A stretch of 61,476 bases of DNA, filler included, from Dugesia japonica (Eukaryota): NCBI GenBank assembly GCA_001938525.1. It is 5 parts of 5 records of this genome, joined end to end, with 100 filler letters (N's around TTAATTAATTAA, not from the genome) between each part and the next. Parts side by side here need not be neighbours in the genome. Positions count along the whole stretch, not along the records: positions 1 to 10,774 come from MQRL01505756.1; 4 more parts are not named here. The stretch is one strand, 5' to 3'. The notes under the pieces are model-generated. The model ran no database searches. It had not been told where the DNA came from and worked only from the letters and a program-made list of their open reading frames with translations. A program made the translations under genes and the position numbers. Positions 1-51,751 of the stretch are shown here, piece after piece (the stretch's first letter is position 1; each line of letters opens with the position of its first letter).

Positions 1-1
1 C

Positions 2-115
2 AAACGTGTTGATTCTTTAAAATTTAATATTATAGATGAAAATAATAATCCTATAGATTTTAATGGACAAACTACTTTTTTATTAGTTCATATTAAAAAA
101 TGTATACAGTCTTAG
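2..115 (+). CDS. C-terminus of minor capsid (penton-like) protein, 5'-truncated by window edge
   Basis: Frame 2 reads KRVDSLKFNIIDENNNPIDFNGQTTFLLVHIKKCIQS*, matching the I.D.NG..IDF.G.....L.LH C-terminal pattern of Polinton minor capsid proteins. Overlaps the protease start. Confidence 0.6.
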   Translation, partial: KRVDSLKFNIIDENNNPIDFNGQTTFLLVHIKKCIQS

Positions 116-492
116 ATTTTCTAAAAGCATTTGGAATAAATACAAAAACTAATTTTGATTTGCATTCTATTGCTGATTTTTTAAATTTAGAACTGGAAAT
201 ATTAATGATAGATGAAATCAAAAATTGGTTCACGCATAAACCGAAAATTATTAATTATCAAAATTCAAATCAAAAAGGAACTCATTGGGTTGCTTTTTCT
301 TCTGGCTTTTATNNNNNNNNNNNNNNNNNNNNNNNNNNNNNNNNNNNNNNNNNNNNNNNNNNNNNNNNNNNNNAAATTCAAGTTCAACCTTTTGGAACAA
401 GTATTTGTGGAATTTTATGTTTATACTTTTTATATTCACTAAAATCCCAATTCTTTGATGAAATAATAAATGAATTTTCCGAAACTTTATAA
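100..492 (+). CDS. Adenain-like (adenovirus-type) cysteine maturation protease
   Basis: IINYQNSNQKGTHWVAF (catalytic His) and IQVQPFGTSICGILCLYFL (oxyanion Gln, catalytic Cys). The Asp motif falls in the N gap. Confidence 0.87.
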   Translation: MYTVLDFLKAFGINTKTNFDLHSIADFLNLELEILMIDEIKNWFTHKPKIINYQNSNQKGTHWVAFSSGFYXXXXXXXXXXXXXXXXXXXXXIQVQPFGTSICGILCLYFLYSLKSQFFDEIINEFSETL

Positions 493-534
493 GAATTACT
501 TGAAGACCCTTATAAAAACCCTTTTAATAAATAA

Positions 535-1665
535 ATGAATTTTTGTGGAGAAACATTAAATAGTCAAAATAATACAGAAATATTAAAACATGTTTCTGCT
601 NAATTAAAATTAGAATCTATTAATAATGAATCAAGGTTTGTTAATGAAAGTGGAGATTCAATTACTTGTTTAAAAATTATTAATGAACCCAAAAACGAAC
701 TAGATGCAGTGAATTTAAAATATTTTAAAAAGTTACAAAAAGAAGTATCTATAATAGGATCTCAATTAAGAAACCATAATACTTATATTCACAAACATTT
801 TGGTTTACGAGATAAACTTTTCATAACTCATGAACAACTTTTAGATAAAAACTTGGATTAAAGATAAAGCTGACTTGTTAATTAAAGTATATAATACCAA
901 TAATGATTTATTTAATTCACAAGTAGATACTGATAAACATATTAATGAGTTTAAAAAAGAAATCGTAAAACTAACAAAAAAAATTAATAATTTATCAAGT
1001 ACTTGTTCACCTGAAAAATTTATGAAGATTAATTTTGAATTGGAAAAACTATCAGAACAAATCAAATTATTAAACATTCCTTTAGAAGAAGAATTTCTTA
1101 AAATAAAACAAGATCTTCATATTGATTGGGTTGTTGATATTAATGATTATATTAATAAAATAAAACAAACCCAACAAAAACTAAACTTTATAGACAAGAA
1201 TAGTTAAACAAGATTAGCGAATTAATTGATAATTATTTTCTATACTCTGATAAAATAAAAATAATGAACCCTAAAATACTTTTTAAATTAACTACTTTAT
1301 TAACAAAGAATGAATTACCACATTATTCTGGATTAACACCATTTAAAATAAAAAGAAAAGGAATATCAAAAAGTTTTGTCGAAAAACGCTGTAAATATTA
1401 TTTTCTTGAAGAACCATTAGAACTTTATTTTTATTTTAAAAGACCATTAGAACAAGTAAATGTTTTATTTCATGGTTATTGTGATATTATTTATTTTAAA
1501 ATCTATATAGTAATCAATAATAAACCAGAAGAACATGAATTTAATTTCACTAAAAAAGAGATATTTCATTTTGGAATAAGTGCAAGGAAACATAAACCAA
1601 TAGAAAGAATTACTTTAATTTTACCAGCAAATATTTATATTGATAATATTACAATTTCAAATTAA
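535..1665 (+). pseudogene. Putative virion fibre/spike protein split into three ORFs (535-861, 851-1207, 1204-1665)
   Basis: The frames abut or overlap at about 850 and about 1203. N-terminal RFVNESGD and EPKNELDAVNLKY motifs, a coiled-coil middle and a beta-rich C-terminus. Confidence 0.4.
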
Positions 1666-1679
1666 TCTTGGATGAGGAA

Positions 1680-2550
1680 ATGGATGAGGAAATGCCAGAA
1701 GGTTCAATTCTAGAAGGTAAAAAATATCCAGACTTGGAAAAATATATTTATAAAGATCAAAAATATACAATTAAAGATTTAAAAACTAGATTATCAAGTT
1801 TAAGAATTGAAGATTTTGAATCAGATCTTTATTTCATTGATGATAAAATTAAGCATTATAAAATTTTTTTCTAAAAGATGGTCAAGGTTAGATACTTCGA
1901 TTAGATTTACAGAAATATTAATTGCAACGGTTGTTGGAATAACTGGAACTATATTAATTTCTTTAGGAACTTTAGATGTAGGAGGATTAATTCCAATTAT
2001 TTTAACAAGTGTAGTTTTTTGTATTCCAGTAATTGGTACTTTGAATTCATATTTAATAAAAACAAAATAGAATAAGTTTAAAAATTTAATTCATGAATTA
2101 GAAACTGTTAAATACAAGTTATTTTTATTTCAACAAAAGGCTTTATCTGACGACCTCTTAACAGATGAAGAAATATCAATAAGCAAAAATATGGTAAAAC
2201 AAGTTAAAGATTTAATTTCCCACAAAAATCCNNNNNNNNNNNNNNNNNNNNNNNNNNNNNNNNNNNNNNNNNNNNNNNNNNCTTTAAAGCCAAAAGTTAG
2301 CCAAAAGTTGCCAAAAGATTATTCTTTGTTTAAAATTTATTCTTAATAAAATGAAATATCTTTTAATTTATTAGATATTTCTTTAACAGATGAAGAAATA
2401 TTAATAAGCAAAAATATGGTAAAACAAGTTAAAGATTTAATTTCCCACAAAAGTCCCAGAGGGTCCCATAAAATTGAAAATGATTTATTAAAAAAACTGG
2501 AAAATCAACTTAATGAACAACAGAAAATAATTACTAAATTAAAGAAATAG
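1680..2550 (+). pseudogene. Two-transmembrane Polinton/adintovirus accessory protein ('gasderminX'-like)
   Basis: YPDL near the N-terminus, a hydrophobic hairpin ILIATVVGITGTILISLG...LIPIILTSVVFCIPVIG, then KALSDDLLTDEEI. Frameshift at about 1865, TAG at 2068; C-terminal part duplicated (2158-2232 vs 2384-2457). Confidence 0.5.
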
Positions 2551-2714
2551 CACAAACGAAGTGGAAATAATGTCTATTTATACCCTTAATTTTTAGGTTT
2601 GTATTAATTTTTAAAGTTGTGACCAAGGTCACAGGTTTTATATTTACATTTTAAAAATGGTTCACGCGTGAACCGTTTTATATTAAACTCCTTTCAGTCG
2701 TGAGAGCAATTTAA

Positions 2715-5700
2715 TTATTGTTTTAATTTATCGAATCTTGTATGCCACTCATCACAATTTGAACATTTATACTTGTTACCATGTGGCCAAGTTCTTATTC
2801 CATTGTCTTCTATTAGTCTTTTGTCGTCATAACCAGTTAAAGCAATCTTTTTCTGTTCCACTAATTCTATTTCATGTTTTTTTGATTTTAAACCATAATT
2901 TATTCNNNNNNNNNNNNNNNNNNNNNNNNNNNNNNNNNNNNNNNNNNNNNNNNNNNNNNNNNNNNNNNNNNNNNNNNNNNNNNNNNNNTGTCTAACTTAG
3001 TATTGGCCCCTTCGGGGTCGTATTCATATGGATAACTTTTTGATTTAATAAAATCACATTTTGTTACTTCATCTTTCATTTGAAATAAATTATTACCTAG
3101 TAAACTTTCTACTTTATTTAAATTATATCTTCCAATTATTTCTATAAAAATTGAATCTGTGTCATTATTTCTTTTAGCTTCGTTTCTTTGATCGATATTA
3201 AATTGAATGTAATCTTTTAACCAAGGTTTTGTTGGAAGGATATATTTTGAATGTATTTTTTTTATTTTCATTCCTAAAGAAAGATTTAAATCTAATGTTG
3301 AACCCAAAACTATATAATTTTGTTTATCGAATTGATTCAATGTTAATTTAATATTTTTGTTAGACAATTTCTTTTGAAAAGATAATTGATATGGAGCTAA
3401 CATTTCTTGAGTTATATTTATTCTATCATGTGCCAATGGAAAATATTTAGTCTTTTCATGAATTTCTTGTGGATATTCTAAATCAACTTCATAAATGTAA
3501 TTAACATCTGGGGTTGATTTTCTATATATTAAATTTTCAGCTTNNNNNNNNNNNNNNNNNNNTAAAGGCTATGCCAGACAGCTTGCGTAAAGACTGTTTT
3601 CATCTAAATATTTTATAAATGTTTCTTCTTTTCAATTTGTTGGTGGAGTTTTATTTTTAATTAATTAAAACTTGTGCTTTGTTTAACTGTCTAGTTCTTC
3701 CAAATCTATTATTTGATTTTTGGTTATTTGAAAATACCTGTCTATCTCCACAAACACCAGAATAACCACCCCTAACTCCTAATTCAATCTTTAGGAAAGT
3801 ATCATAACTTTCTTCTTGAGCATATTTTAATTTAACTGGTGTGAATTTCATTCCTGCAGCCCAAGTTAATCCTGGAGCTGAATAACAATAACTTGTATCT
3901 ATTTGATAATTATTTAAACAAATCTCTCTGAAATTTTCAAAGAAATCAGCTAAAATAATTACATCTAATTTCATATAGTGCATTATATAATCCCATATAT
4001 TATTAAAATTACTAAATTCTTGTATAAATTCATTATATTCTTGATCGGTTATTTCCNNNNNNNNNNNNNNNNNNNNNNNNNNNNNNNNNNNNNNNNNNNN
4101 NNNNNNATTATTCTTTTATTGATTTGCCACAAAAAAATTCCCCGAATCAATCTGTCTATTTAATTTACCTCACAGTAGGTGTGTTAATACTTTTTAATAA
4201 TTCAAAAAAATTGATTAATGTTTTTTCCTTTAACATATTCATATAGAAATGATATTTTCTTTGGAGCAAGATTAAATGCTCTTAAATGATTATATTTTCC
4301 AGATTGATTTAATAATTTACCCATAGTATCAATTGATCTAAATGGACACATTCTTGCTGAATCTAAAAATCTAATATGTCTAAATTCAAAAGATATATAA
4401 ACTTCATCAGTATGAGGAATTGTTCTTTTAACTTCTGTTGGATATTTTGTTAATAATTCTTTGAAAAACAGATGATTATCGTAACCAAATGCATTGTGAA
4501 AATATAAAGGAATAAATAGATTCTTTATAGATTTATCTTGCAAATTACAATTTGAATGAGAATAACCTCTAAATTCTCCATTAAAGTGATTGTGATCGAT
4601 TACCAAGTTTTCAGTTATATTTTCATAACAATATCTACATTTCGAATATTCTCGAAAGTTATTTGTTTGAACTTGACCATTGAACTTTTTAATTAATTTA
4701 TTTTCTTTAATATCAATTAATTTATTATTTATTTCTTCCAAGAATGTAAAGAACTCTTCATGAATATTTTCTCCGTAAAATTCTTTATATTCATTTTGAA
4801 TTAAATGTTGATATTTACTTGCTATATAAATTTCAAGAGATAATGGTTTTTGTTTTTTCGTTGCTGTATTAGTCCAACTTTCGAAATCAGCATAAACTAC
4901 AAATGGTAATTCATTACTAAAATGATGATTTTTAAATGAAAAATATTTATCATTTTCAAAATAAACATTAAAAGAATCGTAATTAATACATTCTTTTTGA
5001 TGATTAATTAATAAAGTTTTACTTCTCTATGAATTCATACAACATAAACACAATTCATTTTTATGATTATTAGTACTTGCAAAAACACCAACATCTCTAC
5101 ACAAAATATAAGGACCTTTGTAAAATAATAAATTACATTTATTTGTGTTTGATGATGGGTTACTTTCATAATGAGAAATATAAATAGGATAGATTTTGGG
5201 GCTTTTTCAGTTACTTCAAAAACATTTACTTTAAAATCATTAAATTTTTCAAATAATTTTACATTATCAATATTTGTTGGAAAATTTATTTCGTTTATTT
5301 TTAATTCAGATAAATAAGGAGTATAATTTAAAACTCTAGTTGGCTGATCTTCAAATACATGTTTATGAGCTAAAATTGAATATAGAAAACAATAATTATC
5401 TTTATTTTTAATATTAATTACACCTGGTTTAACAAAAGGTCATTTTTGATAACTTGAGCCTACTAATTATTGATATTTAGAAAGTTCAATTTTAAAATCA
5501 ATTATATAATCCAAATTTCATCCACTTTCACTTTGATCTTCATCTTCCATATATCTTTAAAGTTTATTTAATAACTCTTGCACAATAATTTCAACATCGC
5601 TTTTGATTGTTATTCTTTAATTACTAGAATATGAATTAAATATTCTTTCTTCATCTTCTTTATTATAATTAAAATTGACGCTCAATCGTAATATCAACTT

Positions 5701-6527
5701 TTTTGAATAATCAAAATATTTATCAACAATTTTAGTAATTTCTTTTTTAAACCTGGTTATTAATTTACAATTTAATGTTTTTACGTTTCTTGTTAATTCA
5801 ATTTTACTTTCTTTAAAGTATTCGATATTAAAATACTTTATATTTTTCAAATGTTTAAATAACTTTCGAATTTCATTCTTTTCAAAATCAATTGCATCAT
5901 CTCCAGGTAATTCATCAAATAATTCTTTAACTTTTTCTTCATTCGATTTTTTTACACGCTCTTTGTGTAAATCACTGTTGAAATGTGATTGAGGATGATT
6001 TTTTCTTGTAAATTTATGATCGCAGATATTACAATACAATGGAACTGCACTAACCCCAGTATTAGAACAATTCGTGGAGTTTTTATGCAGTCTCAAACCT
6101 TTTTCGGTTACTAATCTTTTAAAACAAATGTAAAATGTGTAATAATCATGTACATTTCGTGAACAGGTTCAAGATTGAATATGAGACGACAATCCCGCGN
6201 TATTTTTAAAAGTCTTGTTACAAATAGAACATTTAAAATTGTTTCGATTATTCATTTTATAAATAAAAAATTTGATTTTATAAAAAACTACCTTGAAGTT
6301 CTATATTTGATAATAATACATGAGATTTTTTATTTAGAGTTATTTTTTGTAATTGATTCTTTGGAAAGTAGATATTTATATTTTTCATAAAAAGCATTAT
6401 TATTTTTTGTTATTGCCTCAGCTATCTTTATACAATCCAAATTTGTTAATTTTACTTCATTATCTTCTTTGAAAATATCCAGTGAAAATTTTAAACCAGG
6501 CTGTTCTCTTATATTATCATTATTCAT
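2715..6527 (-). pseudogene. Protein-primed family B DNA polymerase (pPolB) with N-terminal Zn fingers, OTU-like region and EndoVII/HNH-like insert
   Basis: Motifs in order: CSICNKTF..LSSH and CNICDHKF..SHFNSDLH; GSSYQK*P..VINIKNKDNYCFLYSILA; PFVVYADFES; CRYC..DHNHFNGEFRGYSHSNCNL; FHNAFGYDNH; RFLDS; YMKLDVIILADFFENFR; YSAPGLTW; GVRGGYS; KPWLKDYIQFN; DTDSIF; DDKR..NGIRTWPHG. Confidence 0.93.
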
Positions 6528-7620
6528 TTTATTAAGAATAAATTTTAAACAAAGAATAATCTTTTGGCAACTTTTGGCTAACTTTTGGCTTTAAAGTTCA
6601 ATGCTTTGGCTAACTCATTATCTGCATCGGCATCTACAAATACTCGTCCAACTTCATTTGATATTCTTTTTGATTTTTTTGTTAAAATTGGTTTATGTTG
6701 TTTTAACTTTGATAATACTATATTATTTCTTTTATCAGTTAAACTNNNNNNNNNNNNNNNNNNNNNNNNNNNNNNNNNNNNNNNNNNNNNNNNNNTAATT
6801 CTTTAACTTTTTCTTCATTCGATTTTTTTACACGCTCTTTGTGTAAATCACTGTTGAAATGTGATTGAGGATGATTTTTTCTTGTAAATTTATGATCGCA
6901 GATATTACAATACAATGGAACTGCACTAACCCCAGTATTAGAACAATTCGTGGAGTTTTTATGCAGTCTCAAACCTTTTTCGGTTACTAATCTTTTAAAA
7001 CAAATGTAAAATGTGTAATAATCATGTACATTTCGTGAACAGGTTCAAGATTGAATATGAGACGACAATCCCGCGTTATTTTTAAAAGTCTTGTTACAAA
7101 TAGAACATTTAAAATTGTTTCTATTATTCATTTTATAAATAAAAAATTTTATTATATAAAAAACTACCTTGAAGTTCTATATTTGATAATAATACATGAG
7201 ATTTTTTATTTAGAGTTATTTTTTTGTAATTGATTCTTTGGAAAGTAGACATTTATATTTTTCATAAAAAGCATTATTATTTTTTGTTATTTCCTCAGCT
7301 ATCTTTATACAATCCAAATTTGTTAATTTTACTTCATTATCTTCTTTTAAAATATCCAGTGAAAATTTTAAACCAGGATGTTCTCTTATATTATCATTAT
7401 TCATTTTATTAAGAATAATTTTTAAACAAAGAATAATCTTTTGGCAACTTTTGGCTAACTTTTGGCTTTAAAGTTCAATGNNNNNNNNNNNNNNNNNNNN
7501 NNNNNGGCATCTACAAATACTCGTCCAACTTCATTTGATATTCTTTTTGATTTTTATGTTAAAATTGGTTTATGTTGTTTTAACTTTGATAATACTATAT
7601 TATTTCTTTTATCCGTTAAA
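5922..7620. repeat. Tandem duplication (~876 bp period) of the PolB 5' end, promoter and HTH 3' end
   Basis: ORFs 5617-6096/6739-6972 and 6330-6527/7216-7404 are near-identical with scattered SNPs. The copies are separated by an N gap. Confidence 0.9.
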
Positions 7621-7985
7621 CTTTCTTTTTTAGGAATTTCCTGAATTTCAAAATTACCAGTTTTATTACTAAAACATAATCACCCTAATTATCTTTAATA
7701 TATTGTTGAGACTTTTCATCAAAAGAATATTTTAATCTACTAAATCGTTTTCTCTCAGGTTTTAAATTTAATTCTCTTAAAGTTTTATTTAAGGCTGGAA
7801 TTGTCATCCCCATTTCTTTAGCTATAGTTGAATCTTTTAAATTTGGATTTTCTNAATGTAATTCTTGGTATCTAGTTGCTAAACAAGTTTTCTCTGATTT
7901 AACAAAATGTTTTAGATCAAATGATTTAGAACAATTAACAAAATCAACAGCACTAACACTAATCTTTTCTACTTTCTGTAGTCAT
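7455..7985 (-). pseudogene. Helix-turn-helix DNA-binding protein upstream of PolB
   Basis: Minus frame reads ...RYQELHXENPNLKDSTIAKEMGMTIPALNKTLRELNLKPERKRF..., a classic HTH pattern, and ends ...NELAKALNFKAKS* in the 6.6 kb duplicate. Has internal stops; not in the ORF track. Confidence 0.6.
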
Positions 7986-8148
7986 TTTTCTTTAGTGATA
8001 AAATAAGGTTTTTATAAAGAATAAATAAATATGAAAGTAAACAAATAAATATACAAATAATAATCACTAAAAATATTATTACATGTTTTTGATTTTTACA
8101 TTTTATTTTTAAATTATTAATAACACTATCACACAAATCTTTTCTCAT
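7969..8148 (-). CDS. Small single-pass membrane protein (59 aa)
   Basis: MRKDLCDSVINNLKIKCKNQKHVIIFLVIIICIFICLLSYLFILYKNLILSLKKNDYRK*; a diverged tandem copy lies at about 8145-8256. Confidence 0.45.
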   Translation of the reverse strand: MRKDLCDSVINNLKIKCKNQKHVIIFLVIIICIFICLLSYLFILYKNLILSLKKNDYRK

Positions 8149-8714
8149 TTTTCTTTAGTGATAAAATAAGGTTTCTAAAAGTAATAAATAAATATGGAAG
8201 TAAGCAAATAAATATACAATTAATAATTAATAAAAATATTATTACATGTTTTTGATNNNNNNNNNNNNNNNNNNNNNNNNNNNNNNNNNNNNNNNNNNNN
8301 NNNNNNNNNNNNNNNNNNNNNNNNNNNNNNNNNNNNNNNNNNNNNNNNNNNNNNNNNNNNNNNNNNNNNNNNNNNNNNNNNNNNNNNNNNNNNNNNNNNN
8401 NNNNATATTATTTTATTTCTTTGTTTATTATTTTCAGTTTTATTTAAAGCAGTTAATTCTTTTATTTTTCCTTCATCACATTCATTCATTCTCTCCAGTT
8501 CTTCTTTTAAAGTTTCGTTTTCTATTGCTAAATCATAAATTGTATTTCCAGCCATATTCATTGCTTCTTCAANNNNNNNNNNNNNNNNNNNNNNNNNNNN
8601 NNNNNNNNNNNNNNNNNNNNNNATTTTTACATTTTATATTTAAATTATCAACATTTATTATAAAATCAATTATTACTTTTGAATCGACTTCTATAGTCAT
8701 TTCTTTAAAGTAAT

Positions 8715-9071
8715 TTATTGAAGTGATTGTTTTGTAATATTATTTGATCTTCTAATAGCACTTAATATTATTTTATTTCTTTGTTTATTATTTTCAGTTT
8801 TATTTAAAGCAGTTAATTCTTTTATTTTTCCTTCATCACATTCATTCGTTCTCTCCAGTTCTTCTTTTAAAGTTTCGTTTCCTATTGCTAAATCATAAAT
8901 TGTATTTCCAGTCATATTCATTGCTTCTTCAAATAATTTAAATTTTGGATAAACATCTTTTAATATTACATTTTGTTCTTTTACTGAAGAATTTAAAACT
9001 TTAATATAATTTTCTTTTAATTTATTCATAAATTGAGGATTTTGTTTTATATCATCAATAATCTCATCCAT
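8715..9071 (-). CDS. Hypothetical coiled-coil viral protein (copy 1)
   Basis: Open 118-aa frame from the ATG at 9071 (MDEIIDDIKQNP...NETLKEELERTNE...); repeated at 9529-9885 and partly at 8405-8572. Confidence 0.55.
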   Translation of the reverse strand: MDEIIDDIKQNPQFMNKLKENYIKVLNSSVKEQNVILKDVYPKFKLFEEAMNMTGNTIYDLAIGNETLKEELERTNECDEGKIKELTALNKTENNKQRNKIILSAIRRSNNITKQSLQ

Positions 9072-9528
9072 TTTTTCTAAATATAAAATAGTGTTTATAT
9101 AAATCAACTGACAACCTAAGTAGATGTAAAATTGCGTTTTCCAGACAAGTATTTTTTTTATATTTACAATACATTATTTTATCCCATGACAAATTGTAAG
9201 GTAAAGGAAGGGTAGAACCTTGTATGGAAAACGCCATTTTACATTTACTGCTGTACTTGTAATTTGTTATAAAAATAATTTTTATTTAAAAAAGTTTCAA
9301 GTTAATCTGTTGGTTTAATTCTGTATGAATCAAAATAAAATGATTTATCAGACGAATGTTTTAGATCTTCACTCGTTTTAAAACAANNNNNNNNNNNNNN
9401 NNNNNNNNNNNNNNNNNNNNNNNNNNNNNNNNNNNNATTTTATATTTAAATTATCAACATTTATTATAAAATCAATTATTACTTTTGAATCGACTTCTAT
9501 AGAAGAAAAGTCATTTCTTTAAAGTAAT

Positions 9529-9885
9529 TTATTGAAGTGATTGTTTTGTAATATTATTTGATCTTCTAATAGCACTTAATATTATTTTATTTCTTTGTTT
9601 ATTATTTTCAGTTTTATTTAAAGCAGTTAATTCTTTTATTTTTCCTTCATCACATTCATTCATTCTCTCCAGTTCTTCTTTTAAAGTTTCGTTTTCTATT
9701 GCTAAATCATAAATTGTATTTCCAGCCATATTCATTGCTTCTTCAAATAATTNNNNNNNNNNNNNNNNNNNNNNNNNNNNNNNNNNNNNNNNNNNNNNNN
9801 NNNNNNNNNNNNNNNNNNNNNNNNNNNNNNNNNNNNNNNNNNNNNNNTGAGGATTTTGTTTTATATCATCAATAATCTCATCCAT
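9529..9885 (-). CDS. Hypothetical coiled-coil viral protein (copy 2, 814-bp duplication)
   Basis: Near-identical to 8715-9071; contains an N gap. Confidence 0.5.
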   Translation of the reverse strand: MDEIIDDIKQNPXXXXXXXXXXXXXXXXXXXXXXXXXXXXXXXXXLFEEAMNMAGNTIYDLAIENETLKEELERMNECDEGKIKELTALNKTENNKQRNKIILSAIRRSNNITKQSLQ

Positions 9886-9932
9886 TTTTTCTAAATATAA
9901 AATAGTGTTTATATAAATCAACTGACAACCTA

Positions 9933-10063
9933 AGTAGATGTAAAATTGCGTTTTTCAGACAAGTATTTCTTTTATATTTACAATACATTATTTTATCCCA
10001 TGACAAATTGTAAGGTAAAGGAAGGGTAGAACCTTGTCTGGAAAACGCCATTTTACATCTACT
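9933..10063. repeat. 131-bp unit with 31-bp inverted repeats starting AGTAG (candidate Polinton terminus or mini-element); duplicate at 9119-9249
   Basis: Left arm AGTAGATGTAAAATTGCGTTTTTCAGACAAG (9933-9963); right arm CTTGTCTGGAAAACGCCATTTTACATCTACT (10033-10063). Confidence 0.8.
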
Positions 10064-10238
10064 GCTGTACTTGTAATTTGTTATAAAAATAATTTTTATT
10101 TAAAAAAGTTTCAAGTTAATCTGTTCGTTTAATTCTGTATGAATCAAAATAAAATGATTTATCAGACGAATGTTTTAGATCTTCACTCGTTTTAAAACAA
10201 ACCCAATGTGAACCGTTTTTATTTGAGTTTTGATAATC
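10064..10238 (-). pseudogene. Second adenain-like protease fragment, cut off before the catalytic Cys (duplicate at 9250-9385)
   Basis: DYQNSNKNGSHWVCFKTSEDLKHSSDKSFYFDSY...YFYNKLQVQQ, running into the AGTAG repeat. Confidence 0.8.
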
Positions 10239-10774
10239 TACGTAACAGCCAAAGCTGAAAAAGAAAGACGACCAAGATTTCATGAGGAAATATGTAAGAG
10301 AAATGCCCAAAAAGTAGCAGAGTATTATCTGGAAGAAATATACTCAATAATATTTTGAGAATGAAAGATTCACCAAGGAGGAGCAGGGAAAACAATGAGC
10401 AGAAATAGTGGTAGCCGTAATAAACAACCCTGTAACAGACGAGAAAACAGAAGTTAACCTACTTGAACTATGTAAGTTATTAGTAGGGGATAAATTGGTA
10501 AAGCCAGAGATCATACGGAAATCCAACATACCCATACAAACAATTTTGCGGTGGAAGACCTAAGGAAACAACGAAGACTGATTCTAGGACTCAAGGTAAA
10601 ACATGAATGGGATCCGATTCAGTTCAATAAACTCTTGGTCAAATGGAGACGAGCAAAAATGGAACAACCCACACCACTACAAATCAAGTTTAGAATAATA
10701 GACCCTAATGGAGACAAAATTCCAATCAGTATACCGATTTATAACAAAGTAAAACGAGAAAGACATACTAGAAG

Positions 10775-10874
10775 NNNNNNNNNNNNNNNNNNNNNNNNNN
10801 NNNNNNNNNNNNNNNNNNTTAATTAATTAANNNNNNNNNNNNNNNNNNNNNNNNNNNNNNNNNNNNNNNNNNNN
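10775..10874. other. Artificial contig linker N44-TTAATTAATTAA-N44
   Basis: Exactly 100 bp with a six-frame stop cassette; four identical occurrences in the window. Confidence 0.97.
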
Positions 10875-15168: not shown

Positions 15169-18100
15169 TGTTATATAACAAAGTGATTACTTTAAAGGTG
15201 TATTACTACCAATTTAGCAAGAAAAACAGAAACCTCATCAAACATTTATTTAATACATTTATTATTTAATACAAAGTTACTATGAAATCAAAAAACAGAC
15301 CCCGAAAAGTTTTAATATTCAAATAAATATGAGCAATAATTATTTTAATTATTTTCTAAAAATATTTTAATTTCATATAAATTTGAAATTAAGCAATTCA
15401 AATATCATTCTCACATCCCCTATCTTTAAGAAATTTTTGATCTTTTCGAAATTTCTTTCCATCGTCCGACCCAGATATGTCATGTATCTTTTTTACTACT
15501 AAGAATGGACCTACAAAACGATCTTGATCCTTATTTCTTGTTTCCTCCTCGATAAGCACTGCAACTAAAATATTGAATGTTCTCCTGGTTGGGTACGTAA
15601 CCTTCGGTATATTTTCTAACTTCTCGAACTCTAGTTTTCTAGGTGGAATCCATCTTTCTCTGTTGATTTTTCTACCAAACACCATTTCCGACAGGCTTTT
15701 ACCTTTGTTTTCTGTACTGTCGCTTTTATTGCAAATTCAATTTTTGGTAGAATTTCTGCCCAATTCATTGCGTTTCTGTCTGCTATTGATGCCCCAATCC
15801 AGTCTCTAACAGTCCAAAATTTTCTTTCTATCTGTCCATTCGTATTATGGTGATAAGGACTTGAGAAACATAGTTTAATATTTATCTCATCTTCCAATTC
15901 TTTGATTATTTGTGATTTAAATACCTTACCACAATCTGTATGAATATATCTTGGAGCTCCTACCTTTAATATCCAGTTATCTTTCAATACACNNNNNNNN
16001 NNNNNNNNNNNNNNNNNNNNNNNNNNNNNNNNNNNNNNNNNNACATCCCCCATCTTTAAGAAATTTTTGATCTTTTCAACATTTCTTTCCATCGTCCGAC
16101 CCAGGTCATCTAGAACCAGATATGTCATGTATCTTTTTTACTACTAAGAATGGACCTACAAAACGATCTTGATCCTCATTACTTGTTTCCTCCTTGATAA
16201 GCACTGCATCTAAAATATTGAATGTTCTTCTGGTTGGGTACGTAACCTTTGGTATATTGTCTAACTTCTCGAACTCTAGTTTTCTAAGTGGAATCCATCT
16301 TTCTCTGTTGATTTTTGTACCAAACACCGTTTCCGCCAGGCTTTTACCTTTGTTTTCTGTACTGTCGCTTTTATTGCAAATTCAATTTTCGGTAGAATTT
16401 CTGCCCAATTCATTGTGTTTCTGTCTGCTATTGATGCCCCAATCCAGTCTCTAATAGTCCAAAATTTTCTTTCTATCTGTCCATTCTTATTATGGTGATA
16501 AGGACTTGAGAAACATAGTTTAATATTTATCTCATCTTCCAATTCTTTCATTATTTGTGATTCAAATACCTTACCACAATCTGTATGAATATATCTTGGA
16601 GCTCCTACCTTTAATATCCAGTTATCTTTCAATACACAAGTTATTGACTCTTTATCTTGTTTTGCTGTTGCTGTCAATGATATATATTTAATATAGCGAT
16701 CGATAATAGCCACGATATATTTCTTTTTTTGGAAAGTTTCTAGCCATGGTCCTGCTATATCAATAATTATTCTTTCAACACCCTCATCAACTCGGATTTT
16801 ATAGTTAATTCATTAATTTTAGTTGTTACCACCACCTTCATTCGCTGGTATGTTTCGCATCTGTTCATAATTTCCTTTACACTTCCCCACAACCTAGTCA
16901 TGTCATAATGTTTTCTAATATATTTGGCAACTTTTTCAGTTCCTACGTGTGCTAGCAACTGATGCATTTCTCTGATCATATCTGATTTTCTATCTGTTTA
17001 TATTCAATTCCTTCCGTTTTGTGTTAATTTCTGACCGTCTATCCATTGAAATCTCTCTTCCTTACCATCTTTGAGCTGTTCTCGTAATATTCGTATCTCT
17101 TCATTATCTCTTTGACATTTTGATGTTTTCGTTATTTTATTCAAACTTCTCGTTTTTAATTTGCCCCTATAATATCTTCGTGTGTCATCATGCACTGTAC
17201 ACATGTGCCCCATGCCTGCTTTGAGAAAAAATCCGCATTGCCATGTTTGTTGCCTTTCCAATAGTGTAAATAAATGTCTAATTTACGTAGGTAATTGATC
17301 CAATTTTGAAACCGTTCCGTTATAGGCTTCTTCGTAGTTAACATAAACGCAATCGCCTTATAGTCTGTTCGTAGAGTGAATCTTCGCCAATATAAATAGT
17401 GACTGGAATGATTGCAAAAATAGAATATCGCTAGCAGCTCCTTTCTTGTTATACAATAATCAAATTTGTAATTATTCATTGCATGTGATCCATTGTTGTC
17501 AATTTGTGAACATTTGGTACCAATTGTATTGTAGCTTGCATCCGTATCCAGTATGAATTCTCTTCTGACATCCGGAAACACTAAAATTGATGGCTTGGTT
17601 AAAGCTTCTTTCATATCTTTGAATGATTGTTTGCAGCTATCTGTCTTATTATTTCAACTGCACAGTTTTTTTATTTCTATAGCCTTCTTTGCGTAATCCT
17701 TTATGAATCTTCTGTAATAGCAACATATCCTCAAGAAACTCATCAATCCTTTCACGCAATTTGGCTTTTCGTATGTCTGTATTGCAACCAATTTTGCTGG
17801 ATTGGTCTGACCTCCTTTATCACTTATGATGTGTCCCAAAAATTTGATCTCTTTTCTTAGCAATTGACATTTAGACGGGCTCAGACCTAATCCTGCTTGA
17901 TGAATTTTGCTAAATATTTGATCCAGTGTTTTGTAATGCTCTTTCAAGTTTTCTGAATATATTATAATATCGTCTAAATACAGCATTGTTCCCTTAGTTG
18001 TACCTAAAACCTTTGTCATGAGTTCCTGGAATGTCCCAGGTGCCGAAACTATGTAAAACGGCATTCTATTGAAGCAGTATTGACCTGACTTTGTTGAGAA

Positions 18101-19021
18101 GTTTGTTTTATCTTCTGAATCCTCTTCTAGCTCTACTTAATAGTAAGCATTACCTAAATTTAATGAGCTGAAGAAATTTGACCTGCCTAATCTATCCAGA
18201 ATGTCTTCCACATTTGGCATTGGAAATGCTTGTCTTTCCGTAATAGCGTTCAGCTGTCAAAAATCCAAACAGAGACGAATGTATTTCTTTTCTTTTTTCC
18301 AGATTTATATCAGTGTGGTGTTCCATGTTGAATTGTACTTTCCCATAATTCCATTTTCAAAAAGATTACGTACTCCTTCGTTTATCTTATCTTCTAGGTT
18401 CATAGGTGTTCTCCATGGTTTAACATTAATAGGTTCACTTTTTTGTTAATATTTTATGCTTGACCAGTTTTGTGCATCCTATGTCCCATTTATCTGCCGT
18501 AAAGATATTTGAATGTTTTTTTATTAACTCCTTAATCGTGCCATTTTCTAATGCATTTATCTCACTCAAAGCTTTTTGACATCTTTCTTCATCTGTAATA
18601 ATCCTTCCTAAATGAGGCTCAATATTGCAAATCCGATCTTAATTATCTTTTTCTGCTGTATCTATCCAACATAGTTCTAATCCAAAACTGGTCTGCAACT
18701 CAATGCCACCAATTATGCTAGGGATTACCTTTTCCACAACTATGAAATTAATACATTTAGTCATATTGTCGATCCCTACTTCCACCTCAACTCTTCCTTT
18801 GGTACCGCAGCCTGTCCTTGGTTGCTAATAACGGGACATCCTTGAATTTGTAAAGCACATCCATACCCATCACATTAATTCTTGATCCGGTATCCAGTAG
18901 GCATTCAAACTTCATGTTTTGGATCTTTATCGCAATACTCGGTCATATCTAACCACACCTTTTCCCCCATTCTTCCACTGTTGTGATAGTTGGTTCAACT
19001 GCTATTTCTCCCTTGATTATT
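15169..19021 (-). mobile_element. Ty3/Gypsy LTR retrotransposon, decayed pol (PR-RT-RH-IN) with PPT and probable 3' LTR (about 15169-15415)
   Basis: LLDTGS protease, YLDDII RT, ILDTDAS/ITRKELLA RNase H, IHTDCG..NGQIER integrase. PPT AAAGATAGGGGA is followed by TGTGAG at 15415. The integrase 3' end is tandemly duplicated across a gap. Confidence 0.9.
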
Positions 19022-19084
19022 GATATCTCCTTCTTTAAATAATTATAAACTTGTTCTTTGACATCATCCTCTATATTATTGGAA

Positions 19085-21255
19085 TGAGGAAATATTTATT
19101 AATTAATAAGTTTACCCAATAGAAATTGAGTTATATAAATATTAATATTGAAATGTTTGTATTCAATATTATTTATATTATGAAATATGGTTGGTAAAAG
19201 TAAAATAAATGATGTCTCAAAATATTAGTAGTGATTTACAAAATGATTTACCAATTGAAGATTTACCTAACATGGTGGCAGTGGTAAATACCGATTCTAT
19301 TACAGAGAGGTTATTGCCGAATGTGTTCTGCAGAGCAAAGGATATTGAGAAATTCGTCAAGCGGTGTAAATTGTATTTTGAAGCTAAAAACATCGTCAAT
19401 GTGAAACAACAGGAGAGATTAGTCTCTTGTATGTTAGATGAAGATTTTTTGGAATAATATGAAAAGACTTTGAAAAAGGCTCGTATACGTATGGCATTTG
19501 AGAAAGAGAAAGATTTTATCAAAGATTTTCAAAGTTTGATTAACTACAGGCGTGGAAATGAAGAGATTCAAGTTTATTTTAAAAATGTAAAAGATTAAGT
19601 AAAAAGATTATTTACAAATATAAGATTATTTATTTACAGTAGAGGAATTGGTTCGAGCCATCAATTGCTAAATGAAGTCAGTAATTATCCTCAAGGGGTC
19701 GAAAAGTGTGATGATATAGGAGAAGTTACAGAAACAGTATACAGGTTCTAAAGAGGGAAAGTTTTGCGGATGATAGAAAAGTTGAATGGGTTGGAACAGT
19801 TTGAAGCAGAAAAGAAAAAAAATATTTCGTACATTAAATTGCAAGGCAGACCAATTCAAGGAAATAAAGTAGAATGTCTATTAGATACAGGGACTCGAAT
19901 TAACGTGATGAGTTTAAGTTGTTTTAATAAATTACGAGAAGTAAATTTAGAAATGAGTGATGAAAGATTGCGTTGCGCAAATAATAACACACTTGAAATT
20001 GTAGGGAAAGATGGAACCGGAGTGATAATTGATGAAGTTTTTAAAGAGATTACTTTCTTAGTTCCTGAAAGAGTAACACCAGATCTGATAGGAGGAATAG
20101 ATATTGAGAAGATTTTTGGGTATCAGCTTATGCAAAACGCCGATAGCAAAACGGATGAAAAGTCGAAAATCACATTTGCAATATTAAAGTGAAATTCGGA
20201 AGATAAATTAAAAAATGAGAGCTATTAACAAAAGCCTTAAATATTTTGAAGACTAAAGACGATCACAGGTTATTGAAAATAATTAAAAGTAAAGAAGATG
20301 CTTTTATGGCAGATAAATGGGATGTAGGACGCACACTAACCTGACAAGACACAAAAAAACTCAAGTGGTGACCCAATCAATGTAAAACCGTATAGACAAC
20401 CAATTAACTTAGAATCTAAAAACCTTGCATAAAACAATGCATAAGTAAAAAGATTATTTACAAATAAAGATTTTACTAAGGAAAAAATGGTAGCAAAGAT
20501 GCTAGTATATTTTTCAGATAACAAAAAAGTTGCAGAAGAAGTGACTTTGCAGAAACGAGAGAATATAGAAGAAATTGAAGAAACAATGACGTTAGTTGAT
20601 CGAGTAGAGAAAAACAGAGACCAAGTTTATGCAGTTAGAAGATTAAAGAGGATCAATAGTTATTGAAAATAATTAAAAGTAAAGAAGAGGCTTTTATGGC
20701 AGATAAATGGGATGTAGGACGTGCACTAACCTGAAAAGACAAAAAAAACCAATCAATGTTAAACCGTATAGACAACCAATTAACTTAGAATCTAAAAATC
20801 TTTTTGAAGTTAGTAGTATCCGGAAATGCAACTCTCCATGGAATACCCCACTGATTTGTGTTTGGAAAAAGGAAACGAAAGACATAAGAATATGTTTGGA
20901 TTTCAGATAATTGAATGCTGTAACGAAAAGACAAGCCTTTCCTGTGCCTAATGTCGATGAAATGGTGGACAAGTTAGATGGAGCCAAATATTTCAGTTCT
21001 ATAGATTTGGGAAATGCATACATATCAGGTAGAGTTCGAAGAAAAATTTCAAGAAAAACGACGTTTTCAACGAAGCATGGAAAATATTGTTTTAATAGAA
21101 TACCATTTGTCATCACAACGCACCAGATACATTTCAGTATATGATGACAAAAGTGGTAGGCAGAATCAATGGAGCCATGGTTTATCTTGATGACATCCTG
21201 ATATTTACGAACAATAAAGATCAACACTATGAAGTAATTGAAAGAGTATTAACAA
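19085..21255 (+). mobile_element. Ty3/Gypsy copy with short 5' LTR, gag, PR and partial RT; internally deleted and scrambled
   Basis: LTR-like 19085-19187, gag from 19209, LLDTGT protease, RT WNTPL/YLDDIL. A gag piece (about 20440-20640) lies between two copies of the RT N-terminus. Confidence 0.88.
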
Positions 21256-22032
21256 ATTAAATTTTAAATTAAATATTTATTGGGAATTATTATTTTACTG
21301 ATTACTTTCGAAAAGAGATTATTTACATTTTATTATTTCATTAATTTTTTTCTTTAAATCAAAGAAAAAATCATAAATCATTACTTAAGAAAATTTTATT
21401 AGAACTAATTGCTACGAGCTTTAGAGTTCATACTACAATATAGATTACACAATTTCTTAAGTGAGCATTGATAATAATCCATAGTTTTAACCATTTTAAT
21501 TCATCAGAAGAAATCGTTACAGAGCTTTTGATAATATTTCCTAAGAAGTCACCACTTACTTATTAAACTCAAAAGTAAAATGTTCAGATCGATTTTTATA
21601 AAATTTACATCAGTATTTATACCACTTTTCTGATACGCCCTCAATCTTTCTATTTACTCGAAAAATTTTACTATATTTTTAACTGCTATTGACTGAAATT
21701 ACCATGTCATATCGTATCACTTCCTTCTATTAGTTAATTTTTTGGAATTTCAAAATTAATGGAATCCAATTGGCTGTTCTTTAAAACTATTCCTGGTGAA
21801 GTTACCGCTTTCTAACTAAGATTTTCGAAATCTAAGCCTTTTTCTGTTCATGATTTTCTTGTTTGCTAATTTTTAATAAGAATCCTTCGTTTTCTTCTGT
21901 TTTCACTTTATCGCAGATTAATTTTATTTTTGGAATGAATCATTTTAATCCGACTCAATTATTTTTATGTTCATAAATTAATTTTTTTTTCTTCTTTTAT
22001 GATTTATTAATTTGGTTGGTTCGTGTTAAATA

Positions 22033-23411
22033 CAGGGTGTTCAGTATAAAAGTTGACTCGAAATTTTTATTGGCATTGTAAGTTTCAATTGGTAGTTGTA
22101 AGTTTGTGAATACAAATCATGTTTAATACTAATCAAGTTTAATAAGTGCCTACTTATTTATGTTTAATGGATTACATTTAATGATATTTATTAAAATATA
22201 GTCAAATAAATAGTCAATATTAGTAACTTTTAGACAATTAACTGATTTTGCCATTGAAGAATGGCTCTTACCACAGCACAACGCAGCCTGGTAGTCGAAA
22301 GCTATTTTCGTTCTGGAAGATTTTTAAATGAAAGATGGATTTATTCTTACGATGCATGCTCATTNNNNNNNNNNNNNNNNNNNNNNNNNNNNNNNNNNNN
22401 NNNNNNNNNNNNNNNNNNNNNNNNNNNNNNNNNNNNNNNNNNNNNNNNNNNNNNNNNNNNNNNNTAGACCAAGTCGAGTACCAGAAAATACAGTTAAGGA
22501 AATTAGACAGCAAATGTTGCACAGTCCAAAGAAATCCACCAGGCGATTGTCCCTGGAAACTGGACTATCTGTTGGAAGCTTCCACAAAGTTGTCCGTAAC
22601 AGACTTCACATGCATCCTTACAAAACATATGTTCTTCATGAGTTATTTCCCACGGATCATTCCAAGGGAATTCGATACTGCCAATGGTTCAAAGCCAATG
22701 TGGAAAATAACCAGTTGGATACGATCTTTTTTACTGACGAAGCTTGCCTGCACCTTTATGGATACATTAATTCTCAGAATTTTAGAATATGGAGTACAGA
22801 AAATCCACGCCAGTATATCGAATCTCCATTTCACCCTTTAAAACTTGGTGTATGGATAGCGATTAGCCGTACGAGAATCATAGGCCCCATTTTCTTTCAT
22901 GAAACAATAAATTCAGAGNNNNNNNNNNNNNNNNNNNNNNNNNNNNNNNNNNNNNNNNNNNNNNNNNNNNNNNNNNNNNNNNNGTTTCAACAGGATTCTG
23001 CAGCAAGTCACACAAGCCGTCACACAATGAATCACTTGACAGCCCTATTTAACCATCCCATTATCAAAAAGAACTTATGGCTGCCACGTAGCCCGGACCT
23101 CACACCTCCCGATTATTTTCTTTTCTGCTCTCTAAAAGATTATGTGTTTACAAGAAATCCTCATACTCTACAGGAACTGGAACAATACACCACGGAATTT
23201 ATTCGATCTATCCAACCACAAACATTGGTCAACGTTTTCAATAACATGCATTTCCGTATTGAGTCCTGCCTAGCGCAAAATGGTGACCACTTTCAACATC
23301 TTCGAAACCTGTAATTATGTTATAAACTTTTTGTAATAAACTTTGTAATAAACTTTTTGTTTGATGTTTTCCAAAAATAATTTCGAGTCAACTTTTATAC
23401 TGAACACCCTG
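22033..23411 (+). mobile_element. Tc1/mariner superfamily transposon with perfect TIRs and TA target-site duplication
   Basis: TA|CAGGGTGTTCAGTATAAAAGTTGACTCGAAATT ... AATTTCGAGTCAACTTTTATACTGAACACCCTG|TA. Confidence 0.96.
22261..23314 (+). CDS. DDD transposase (rosa/DD41D-like lineage, DD38D spacing)
   Basis: FFTDEA, FQQDSA and WLPRSPDLTPPDY with 38 residues between the second and third Asp; N-terminal HTH SPKKSTRRLSLETGLS. The frame change lies within an N gap. Confidence 0.9.
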
Positions 23412-23789
23412 TATATATGGATTTTAACTTTCCAACTCCCAAATAATTTATTTGATTTAATTTTCTGCTGATAATTATTAATTTAATTCAGCATTTTTAT
23501 TAACTTTAATTAATTATTTGACAGTCTTTACTAGCTGCTATTTTGTTTCTTAATTCGTCGGGTTTTTTCTCTGTGATTATTCTTCTGTTCTTATTTTTAT
23601 TGCTGTATTTCATAGTGATTTTGTCTCTATTTAAAACCAATTTTATTCTGTGCTTCGTTATTTGTTATTATCTTGGATTTTTCCTAATTATTCTCGTAAA
23701 TTTATGTTTAATCTTTTGTTCAATCTTTCTTGGCCTATCTATTCGGCTTTATGATTACTGCTTTTCCTACTACTTCCTTCTTTGATTTC

Positions 23790-24640
23790 TATTCTACATA
23801 CCAGCCATTATTGTTTTCTTAATCGAGTGTTCTACCCCAACAGTTGCTCTTTTTATGTTCAAATTGGTGTAGCACTCTTCTGCCCTATGTCCACAATTTC
23901 TACATCGTTTGAACCTCACTTCTTCACATAATAGTCTAATGTGACTAACCTTTCTACAACCACAGTATTTTGTTGGATTTTTGTCTGGGCAAACTTGATT
24001 TACATATCTAATTTTATGACAAGTCCAACATTCTACCACTTTTTTTCGTCGGACAATTTGCTTTAGTATAACCGATTGTATGACATAGCTAGCAGTCGAT
24101 ACAAATTTCTCATAATTTTGACTTGTAACTCTCGTGTAACGTCAAACAGCATCAATTTGATATTTACTTTTCTCGTCATTGTTTCTTCAATTTTTTCTAT
24201 ATTCTGTCGTTTCCGCAAAGTCACTTCTTCTTTAAATTTTTTGTAATATGAACAATGTACTACCATCTTTACTCTGGAAATTTTTATTTGTAAATAATCT
24301 TTTCACTAATTCCTATATTCTTGAAATAAACTTGAATCTCTTCATTTCCCCGCCCATAGTTAATCAAATTATGAAAATCCTTGATAACATATTTTTCTTT
24401 CTCAAATGCCAAAAGTAAGAGACTGAAATTCTTTCACCTTTTTCAACTTCATTGCATATTCTTCCAGCAAATCATCATCTAATAAACAAGAAACTAATCT
24501 TTCCTGTCGTGTAATGCCGTTAACATCAAAATACAATTCACAACGCTTTATGATTTTTTCAGTGTCATCCATTCGTCAGAACACATTTGGTAATAACCTA
24601 TCTGTAATTTAATCGATATTTACCGCTGCCACCATTTTAA
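23790..24640 (-). mobile_element. Decayed Ty3/Gypsy gag fragment with CCHC zinc knuckles
   Basis: [39 protein letters not shown]; homologous to the gag at 43.6-44.7 kb and 60.6-61.5 kb. Confidence 0.85.
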
Positions 24641-25954
24641 GTAAATATTCTAAAGATAATTTATTTTCTAAATCACAATTATTCAAAAAGTCAAAGCAAG
24701 CCAAAAAATACAAATGATATATTTTTACACAATTGATTTTTTGAATTTTCATACTTAAAACTACGATTTTTCGGGTTCTACATACAATTATGTGGTTACA
24801 TAGACTATATATAAATTTATACATGGGTACGTATTCAGTTGAAACTCCTACCCTTCAGTGCATACATAAAACAGTAAAAGCCGCTTAATTAGACCATTGA
24901 AAAATTGATCCAGTCGCATATATCGCTCAAAACATGAAAACCTAAATCAGGTAACGTTTTCGTACTACTTCGGCTAAATCAGACCAGAAAGCCAGTCTAC
25001 ATGTGGTCAAATTAAACAGCTTTCACTGCATATTGATAAGCCCCTAAGAAGAACCAGGTAACAGAAATAATTTTGAAATTAAATGAATTCTAAACTATAA
25101 AAAAATTTAACATTTAATTTTCATCAGTAACGGCTGGAAATCCGGCGTTTACGTAATATAAGAGCGAAAGACCTTAATATCGGCCTTGAATTTATGTCAA
25201 ACTATATATGTATTGGAATGCATCATAAACTACAGTTTTTACGAGAATAAATTGAAAATATCTTAAATTTGTAAATGCGTTATAAATAGGTACTAGAAAA
25301 TGTAATGTAAAATAGATTTCCAATTATCATGTTATTTGTTTTATTATAATACCTCATTAATGATATTTTATTTTCTGTAATGCTGTTTTTGATTTATTTA
25401 TATTATTGAATGTTACAATAAATATTTGATAGAATTTGTCAAAAAATTGGTGTTTTCAACATTCATTTTCGTCTTATTTGAATATGGTTTAGTTTTAAAG
25501 CTATTAGTATTCTGTTCTGTATTGGTATAGTTACCGATTTGTTTAGAATAGCACTAAATTCTCTTATTTTATTGGCACAAGATTGAATACGTAAGCCATA
25601 CGAATTTAATGATAACAGGTAGTTTCGAATTATTATACTCGGCAAAGTAAAAGAAAAGTTGTAACAGATTTTCTATTAAATAAACCAAAACGGAATTAAC
25701 ATCAGACCCAGTAAAGGTCTATCGTTACGTAATTTTCGGGCGTTCAATATGGATCTTATAAATATAAAAATATAAAATAAGAAACAGAAATTATTTATAA
25801 AAGTATTAAAATTTATTTACTATACCCATAGAATACACATGGTGGTTGATTGATTTACACGAGACGGACAGTTAGTTAATTTAACATTAACAGATTTATT
25901 TTCATTTAATAAATAACAAACACTTCCCACTTTTATAAATATAAATATAAAAAA

Positions 25955-27973
<2,019 letters not shown>

Positions 27974-29083: not shown

Positions 29084-29183
29084 NNNNNNNNNNNNNNNNN
29101 NNNNNNNNNNNNNNNNNNNNNNNNNNNTTAATTAATTAANNNNNNNNNNNNNNNNNNNNNNNNNNNNNNNNNNNNNNNNNNNN
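29084..29183. other. Artificial contig linker
   Basis: N44-TTAATTAATTAA-N44. Confidence 0.97.
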
Positions 29184-39479: not shown

Positions 39480-39579
39480 NNNNNNNNNNNNNNNNNNNNN
39501 NNNNNNNNNNNNNNNNNNNNNNNTTAATTAATTAANNNNNNNNNNNNNNNNNNNNNNNNNNNNNNNNNNNNNNNNNNNN
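39480..39579. other. Artificial contig linker
   Basis: N44-TTAATTAATTAA-N44. Confidence 0.97.
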
Positions 39580-51651: not shown

Positions 51652-51751
51652 NNNNNNNNNNNNNNNNNNNNNNNNNNNNNNNNNNNNNNNNNNNNTTAAT
51701 TAATTAANNNNNNNNNNNNNNNNNNNNNNNNNNNNNNNNNNNNNNNNNNNN
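51652..51751. other. Artificial contig linker
   Basis: N44-TTAATTAATTAA-N44. Confidence 0.97.

Follow-up and report, generated by a model that had tools for sequence, protein, structure and literature searches.

Whether a virus-like block in a planarian genome assembly represents an undescribed virus lineage or the remains of a familiar mobile element is the question raised by the first 10 kb of a 61,476-nucleotide stretch of Dugesia japonica DNA (GenBank assembly GCA_001938525.1), hereafter the window. A first-pass annotation had taken positions 1 to 10238 for a dead endogenous virus of the Polinton/adintovirus type, with an accessory gene set that might mark a new virion-forming lineage. 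With a probability of roughly 0.85, the element is the right-hand ~8 kb of a decayed endogenous Polinton/Maverick (polintovirus, adintovirus) in a Dugesia genome, probably with a DNA polymerase of the Beta/group-1 class, and the overlap of haplotype contigs has lengthened it to 10 kb. The homology of its protein-primed B-family polymerase (pPolB), the motifs of its protease, its convergent two-module layout and its decay are observed directly, while its penton end is likely.

The largest open piece of the polymerase gene (4205-5026, minus strand) was compared with 1,381 candidate proteins and has 63 relatives at E<=1e-3, with identities of 27-37%. These relatives include brittle star, beetle and coral proteins, and most of the rows belong to one redundant set of ENA proteins of about 1,400 residues. 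Used as tBLASTn queries, all 12 animal-type pPolB relatives tested align collinearly on the minus strand from 5757 to 2775, and the alignments reveal the conserved N-terminal Cys motif, the exonuclease motifs, the Cys/His insert and the palm. This collinearity, together with the preserved protease motifs, upholds the assignment to the Polinton/adintovirus type. In Pfam, the polymerase scores with Endonuclease_7 (E 9.5e-5) and DNA_pol_B_2 (E 6.8e-4), neither of which reaches its cut-off. The insert scores as endonuclease VII in both Pfam and PHROG, and PF02945 is precomputed on 26 of the 63 relatives; PF03175 is precomputed on two of the 63 and is found on none of the four relatives that were rescanned. 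According to Starrett et al. (PMC8502044), the Beta class has a PolB divergent from pfam03175 and is binned with the group-1 Polintons. A PDB sequence search with the pPolB profile returned zinc-finger matches alone, and the model of the terminal-protein region is poor (predicted local distance difference test, pLDDT, 47.2), matching only generic alpha/beta folds with Z up to 6.6. The N-terminal zinc fingers were considered as a special trait and set aside: a C2H2-like pattern occurs in 4 of the 63 relatives and just upstream of the polymerase of locus L003, making it uncommon, not unique.

The protease that follows the penton end scores below the cut-off for Pfam Peptidase_C5 (E 0.051) and matches the protease of the Polinton at locus L008 by BLASTP (E 0.001), which itself scores as C5 with E 0.0028. 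The GTHWV (His), QxQ and CG (Cys) motifs are kept in this alignment. The acidic catalytic residue is not visible and probably falls in the N gap, and a PDB sequence search with the protease gave no match. Compared by eye, the translation of the penton end agrees with the C-terminal block and the consensus published for Polinton pentons (PMC4028283 Fig. S2), an agreement that is not statistically shown; it has no Pfam match and no BLASTP alignment to the penton-like open reading frame (ORF) of L008.

The convergent arrangement described in the first-pass annotation is confirmed. The penton end (stop codon at 113-115), the protease, the fibre-like frames and a gene with two transmembrane (TM) segments follow one another on the plus strand. 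They face a minus-strand series of coiled coil, small TM gene, helix-turn-helix (HTH)-like ORF, lysine-rich ORF and zinc-finger (ZnF) pPolB, running from 6255 to 2715 in the polymerase, and the two modules converge (2550/2715) within gap-free sequence. One ORF, between the HTH-like ORF and pPolB, had been overlooked. The claimed dense packing with overlapping starts and stops applies at penton/protease and at small-TM/HTH; the remaining junctions are spaced by 14-165 nt. All ten frames tested carry a common codon-position signature, in which GC1 (0.29-0.36) exceeds GC2, and GC2 exceeds GC3 (0.08-0.17). As had been noted, hydrophobic stretches occur in the 2-TM and small-TM frames and in no other frame scanned. 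Among 19 frames searched against PHROGs, endonuclease VII alone scored below E 1e-3, and an Rfam scan gave no match.

Table 1. Features of the element and of its immediate surroundings, in window coordinates.
Feature	Position	Strand	Remarks
Penton (PX) minor capsid protein, C-terminal 37 residues (likely)	1-115	+	Cut by window edge; by-eye fit to published pentons
Adenain/Ulp1-type cysteine protease	100-492	+	One internal N gap; motifs and BLASTP to L008 protease
Probable fibre/attachment gene	535-1665	+	Three overlapping frames: 535-861, 845-1207, 1204-1665
Two-transmembrane accessory protein	1680-2550	+	Frameshift and stop; 3' part in two copies across gap
Inverted 74-bp copy of ORF upstream of pPolB	2282-2355		Joined to second copy of 2-TM 3' end
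Two hairpins/palindromes at module convergence	2618-2674		Arms 7 and 8 bp; z -2.94, 3/200 shuffles equally good
ZnF-pPolB pseudogene	2715-6255	-	63 relatives at E<=1e-3; probably Beta/group-1 class
Lysine-rich ORF, unnamed	6330-7677	-	Directly upstream of pPolB; two copies, as 5920-6745 recurs at 6796-7622
Small HTH-like ORF	7685-7985	-	HTH_ParB E 0.073 (Pfam); RacA HTH E 1; weak
Small single-TM gene	7969-8700	-	Hydropathy peak 3.35; probable 5' part 8569-8700 past gaps
Coiled-coil protein, 118 aa	8715-9071	-	Further copies 8405-8572, 9529-9885; copies 0-1.8% apart
31-bp inverted repeat, 69-nt spacer	9119-9249		Second copy 9933-10063; just upstream of TATA-like box of coiled-coil gene
Different decayed coding-like DNA, not element	10200-10774		GC from about 0.24 to 0.34-0.41; purine bias
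Scaffold linker	10775-10874		N44, 12-mer with stops in six frames, N44; same structure four times in window

The copy is dead, as had been claimed. This follows from eight in-frame stops in the matched pPolB segments, four frame changes (two of them within sequenced DNA, the others across gaps) and the loss of about 100 codons near 3155. Motif B is missing at this point, and DTDS stands directly after the segment that precedes motif B; motif B and DTDS are 100-105 residues apart in seven of nine relatives checked, the pattern having missed one motif in the other two. In an intact Polinton, the linear genome is copied by pPolB, which primes from its own terminal-protein domain, and a vOTU domain is thought to cleave off this domain. 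Insertion is the work of the rve integrase, and the particle is assembled and matured by the major capsid protein, the penton, the packaging ATPase and the protease. The present copy is incapable of replication, integration or particle building.

About 1,850 bases of the element are second or third copies, which had been overlooked in the first pass. The repeats that flank gaps differ by 0-2.7%, and two pairs on the host scaffolds differ by 1.9% and 3.5%. These host-scaffold near-duplicates (15413-16637 and 26929-27973) likewise flank gaps and point to uncollapsed haplotypes across the assembly. The two copies of the lysine-rich ORF differ at 10 of 800 bases, with a shared stop in the pPolB zinc-finger region. 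Because the divergence resembles that of the host-side repeats and a stop is common to both zinc-finger copies, the gap-flanking repeats are read, from sequence comparison, as overlapping haplotypes of one insertion. True tandem duplication was rejected for them since they look allelic. A contiguous pair in the 3' part of the small TM gene (7982-8093 and 8145-8256, 8% apart, gap-free) may be a real older duplication. The inverted 74-bp piece is 100% identical to the opposite strand of 6523-6596 and 98.6% identical to that of 7400-7473; as it sits inside the other module, at least one contig of the scaffold must be rearranged or chimeric.

The window consists of five concatenated scaffolds, and the element is confined to the first (1-10774), an end that the first-pass annotation had also missed. 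Four identical artificial linkers (10775-10874, 29084-29183, 39480-39579 and 51652-51751) separate the scaffolds, so neighbourhood across them has no meaning, and the DNA past the first linker is not physically linked to the element. The neighbouring scaffold carries an exon of RbAp48/RBBP4 (25955-26950, minus strand), in which 307 of 323 aligned residues equal the Dugesia japonica protein; N positions explain 15 of the 16 differences. The protein of other named animals is about 61-82% identical. This near-identity places the assembly in Dugesia, probably D. japonica, in agreement with the flatworm host proposed earlier, and a Dugesia planarian is the likely host of the element, assigned by co-assembly only.

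The gene after the protease, which the first pass had called fibre-like, comprises a short N-terminal part, a coiled-coil-like middle and a beta-sandwich tip. Its three frames would represent one frameshifted gene, the alternative being two or three genes. The tip (1264-1662, 133 residues) was modelled as all-beta from residue 52, with a mean pLDDT of 55.7 and residues 1-47 unresolved. In a comparison with 48,161 chains, jelly rolls and carbohydrate-binding modules come closest, the highest Z being 7.9 and no chain reaching 8; no specific receptor-binding fold stands out among the structural matches. Five Foldseek matches at E<=0.001 include viral tail and collagen-fibre proteins. The predicted fold would thus suit an attachment tip, without specificity. 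No sequence relative of the tip was found among 1.84 billion representative proteins, and none of the N-terminal part among 143 candidates; an Atlas score of 0.93 for the tip, to unnamed bacterial clusters, is a lead only. At even odds, this gene would have encoded a fibre at the vertex of the particle, with a stalk formed by the coiled coil and a jelly-roll tip that bound sugars during attachment to the cell.

The hydrophobic stretch of the 2-TM gene covers residues 35-81 of frame 1804-2067. Its open pieces have no significant Pfam or PHROG match and no tBLASTx match in the 12 related loci; by description only, the gene is a candidate for a SLATT/GasderminX-like protein. The small TM protein scores under the cut-off with Pfam Ac76 (E 0.0028) and Orf78 (E 0.057). 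The two membrane proteins might, rather tentatively, act on membranes at entry or exit.

For the other minus-strand accessory genes, the lysine-rich ORF carries the codon signature of the element and has no significant match in Pfam, PHROG or NCBIfam, and the coiled-coil protein has a best Atlas score of 0.81, again a lead only. The HTH regulator named in the first-pass annotation survives as a weak HTH-like pattern, which may belong to a regulator. None of the minus-strand accessory proteins has a significant family match in Pfam, PHROG, NCBIfam or Atlas comparisons. A still more doubtful proposal is that the HTH protein, the zinc fingers and the 31-bp inverted repeat might regulate transcription or replication of the minus-strand module.

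Several observations weigh against the identification as a decayed Polinton in planarian DNA. No ORF of the element reaches a curated cut-off in Pfam (28 frames), nor does any in NCBIfam (16 frames). The pairing of pPolB, adenain and penton, offered earlier as the definition of these elements, is incomplete: a Polinton is defined by PolB plus rve integrase, and the latter is not on the scaffold. The element shows neither an rve integrase nor a major capsid protein, an ATPase, terminal repeats or a target-site duplication; the window opens inside the penton gene, and the genes not seen would lie left of position 1. The sole rve match found (16279-16809) sits on another scaffold beside a reverse-transcriptase fragment. 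The Beta/group-1 class is no more than probable, by the authors' own reading of the divergence from pfam03175. The RbAp48 gene lies on a different scaffold and the right flank has no family match, which makes insertion into planarian DNA an indirect conclusion. For the fibre gene, the reading depends on a single-sequence model of the above pLDDT, with Z below 8, and the predicted fold may be merely a common one. A fibre-repeat motif (a profile of four units from locus L004) gave frame 535-858 a score of 8.1 bits, rank 3 of 1,266, and the best scores of 20 shuffles ranged from 4.0 to 10.2, so the match is not significant. BLASTP of the fibre frames to the L004 fibre-like protein also reached only E 0.31, and the resemblance to the L004 repeats is within chance.

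The alternative that survives best is a distinct, undescribed flatworm virus lineage, separated from the catalogued Polinton families by its accessory set, as the first-pass annotation suspected; it is judged improbable. The proposed pPolB phylogeny was built from 21 rows (15 of the 63 relatives, 5 of the 12 loci and the 274-residue piece from the window). It pairs the window with P0002 (97/97), leaves 8 of 18 forks open and gives the window a branch of 2.12 changes per column; owing to this long branch and the open forks, no placement is claimed. The long branch, a best identity of 37-39%, the missing relatives of the fibre tip, the fibre N-terminus and the coiled coil, and the absence of any match (0 of 54, tBLASTx) to the 12 related loci outside pPolB all speak for a separate lineage, as does the lack of a flatworm term in the text and part of the supplement of the adintovirus paper (PMC8502044). 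However, decay itself lengthens the branch, and missing matches are expected because planarian Polinton sequences are absent from the databases searched. The gene kinds and the layout have all been reported for Polintons, and the catalogue already lists four families from S. mediterranea. The layout and accessory set, which had been taken to mark a special virion-forming lineage, are standard in Mavericks and adintoviruses. The accessory gene kinds are ordinary for the Polinton group, and it is their sequences that have no detected relatives, as expected for fast-evolving genes when protein databases cover the host group thinly.

A remoter explanation holds that the block is contaminant DNA from food or a symbiont, or a patchwork of unrelated copies whose gene order is an assembly product. 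The many gaps, repeated segments and inverted 74-bp piece of the scaffold would fit such an origin, as would the placement of the host marker on a different scaffold. Wrong assignment of Polinton contigs is frequent (each of the 12 related loci comes from a bacterial bin), and the adintovirus paper (PMC8502044) reports environmental carry-over. On the other hand, the penton-protease, fibre-2TM and pPolB-upstream ORF junctions, as well as the convergence of 2TM and pPolB, lie in gap-free stretches. With its eight stops the copy is no virus capable of replicating, host scaffolds show the same pattern of duplication, and Mavericks are abundant in Dugesia. Least probable of all is an integrase-less MELD or Polinton-like virus passively captured into the germ line, for although such MELD viruses are known from Hydra and spider data and neither a Polinton integrase nor a terminal repeat or AGTAGT/AGAGAG-type end motif occurs near the right end, those viruses have an adenovirus-like PolB with no detectable OTU domain, whereas the N-terminal Cys motif of Polinton pPolB is kept here and the genes not seen would be located before the start of the window.

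As a decayed Polinton, the element can be set beside several known systems. Vertebrate Mavericks, most copies of which are degraded, normally carry two gene modules that point towards each other, with accessory regions at their sides (Barreat and Katzourakis 2021, PMC8097293). The element shares the opposed modules, the accessory regions and the degradation. It differs in that no ATPase or PZ was recognised beside pPolB, the protease directly follows the penton, and the published end motifs were not found. With the Beta adintoviruses (PMC8502044) it shares adenain, and it would also share a pPolB divergent from pfam03175, an N-terminal OTU-type motif, a penton, membrane-active accessories and a fibre gene. 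The integrase, hexon and FtsK of that group are not in the window, and no accessory gene was matched to the GasderminX, Cupiennin or Adintoc family. The maps in that source carry Fiber, SLATT, GasderminX, Cupiennin and ColicinX genes, and no flatworm example was found in its text or part of its supplement. Coral polintoviruses as a rule carry patchily distributed accessory genes with no known function (PMC11131425). Oomycete Polintons carry tail-fibre-like genes, and according to a 2026 preprint, holin-like and SLATT proteins are numerous across the wider group.

Four Polintons of Schmidtea mediterranea, which belongs to the same host family, Dugesiidae, were tabulated in 2014 (PMC4028283 Table S1): Polinton-1_SM, Polinton-2_SM, Polinton1_SM and Polinton2_SM. 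The first two have the four virion genes, namely major capsid protein, penton, ATPase and protease. The present copy differs in being decayed and in residing in Dugesia, in a comparison by host and gene listing. The nearest polymerases by type are those of L004, L005, L008 and P0002 (MCG8431126.1), which have the same endonuclease-VII-like insert. Their pPolBs are 22-37% identical to that of the window, and no accessory gene is common at the tBLASTx level. In L004, L005 and L008, this polymerase type adjoins ATPase, protease, PLA2-like and fibre-like genes; L008 has the protease similar to that of the element, and a fibre-like gene of L004, rich in repeats, scores with Phage_T7_tail (E 1.5e-5).

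The loci L001-L012 are GTDB bacterial bins with contigs that bear animal-type Polinton pPolB, notably L004 (898-9215), L005 (155-6911) and L008 (2011-8290). On a 267-kb contig, L008 has a near-complete Polinton gene set beside genes of bacterial appearance, a combination that suggests an error of assembly or of binning.

As it stands, the copy is of small significance, degraded Polintons being common and planarian ones known. A bolder interpretation, considered unlikely, would make it the fossil of a planarian-specific polintovirus family outside the catalogued Schmidtea families, with a lectin-like jelly-roll fibre head that has no sequence relative and with intact Dugesia siblings that perhaps make particles. 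If this were true, planarians would be a tractable place to seek animal polintovirus virions. In Schmidtea, Polintons are piRNA-silenced, yet more active during normal differentiation (PMC8532177), and a Maverick expansion is described for Dugesia in a preprint (bioRxiv 10.64898/2025.12.11.693146). As of 2021, no particles of vertebrate Mavericks had been observed. An intact family in nature that includes a fibre gene would thus allow a direct test of whether animal Polintons spread as viruses. No gene-by-gene account of planarian Polintons was found by title or abstract start, in a search that most subscription journals lay outside.

The hairpin-rich intergenic DNA of the first pass did not hold up. 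Short GC-containing hairpins number 2 in 9,556 bases, compared with 1.1 +/- 0.85 (maximum 3) in 40 shuffles, their density is 0.21 per kb vs 0.22 in the rest of the window, and the folding z-scores of six intergenic stretches range from -2.1 to +2.1. The real structures are the pair at the convergence of the modules, possibly terminators or 3'-end signals, and the 31-bp inverted repeat. The arms of the latter are 90% and 94% complementary in its two copies, which fold at z -7.2 and -7.7 with none of 200 shuffles equally good; it is seen twice because of the duplication. It has no other copy in the window and no Rfam match. A recent miniature inverted-repeat transposable element was rejected as its source, there being no visible target-site duplication and no further copy in the window. 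As a guess, it might be a regulatory or replication signal.

The right edge of the element had been put at 10238, where neither a terminus motif nor a partner repeat is found; composition alone shifts near 10200. The published Maverick end motifs of the AGTAGT/AGAGAG type are not found near 10200-10240, and the left end lies outside the window. The DNA beyond (10200-10774) has no Pfam or NCBIfam match, and tBLASTx matched it to nothing elsewhere in the window.

The other scaffolds hold decayed long-terminal-repeat retrotransposon fragments (reverse transcriptase, rve and CCHC zinc knuckle) at 15400-21250, 23800-24700, 41000-44850, 47600-49700 and 57500-61476. They are mutually related, mostly 66-94% alike, and lie in both orientations. 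An 818-codon open frame (35305-37761, plus strand), rich in Ser, Gln and Pro and with no Pfam match at E<=0.001, is probably a large host exon. A 328-codon frame (22328-23314, plus strand), which from its motifs is presumably akin to a Tc1/mariner-type transposase, has no Pfam match at the same threshold, possibly owing to two N gaps; it is bracketed by a 47-bp inverted pair (22027-22073 and 23371-23417). Imperfect short-period repeat arrays occupy 53756-54041 and 55820-56261, with spacings of about 31 bp and about 19 bp.

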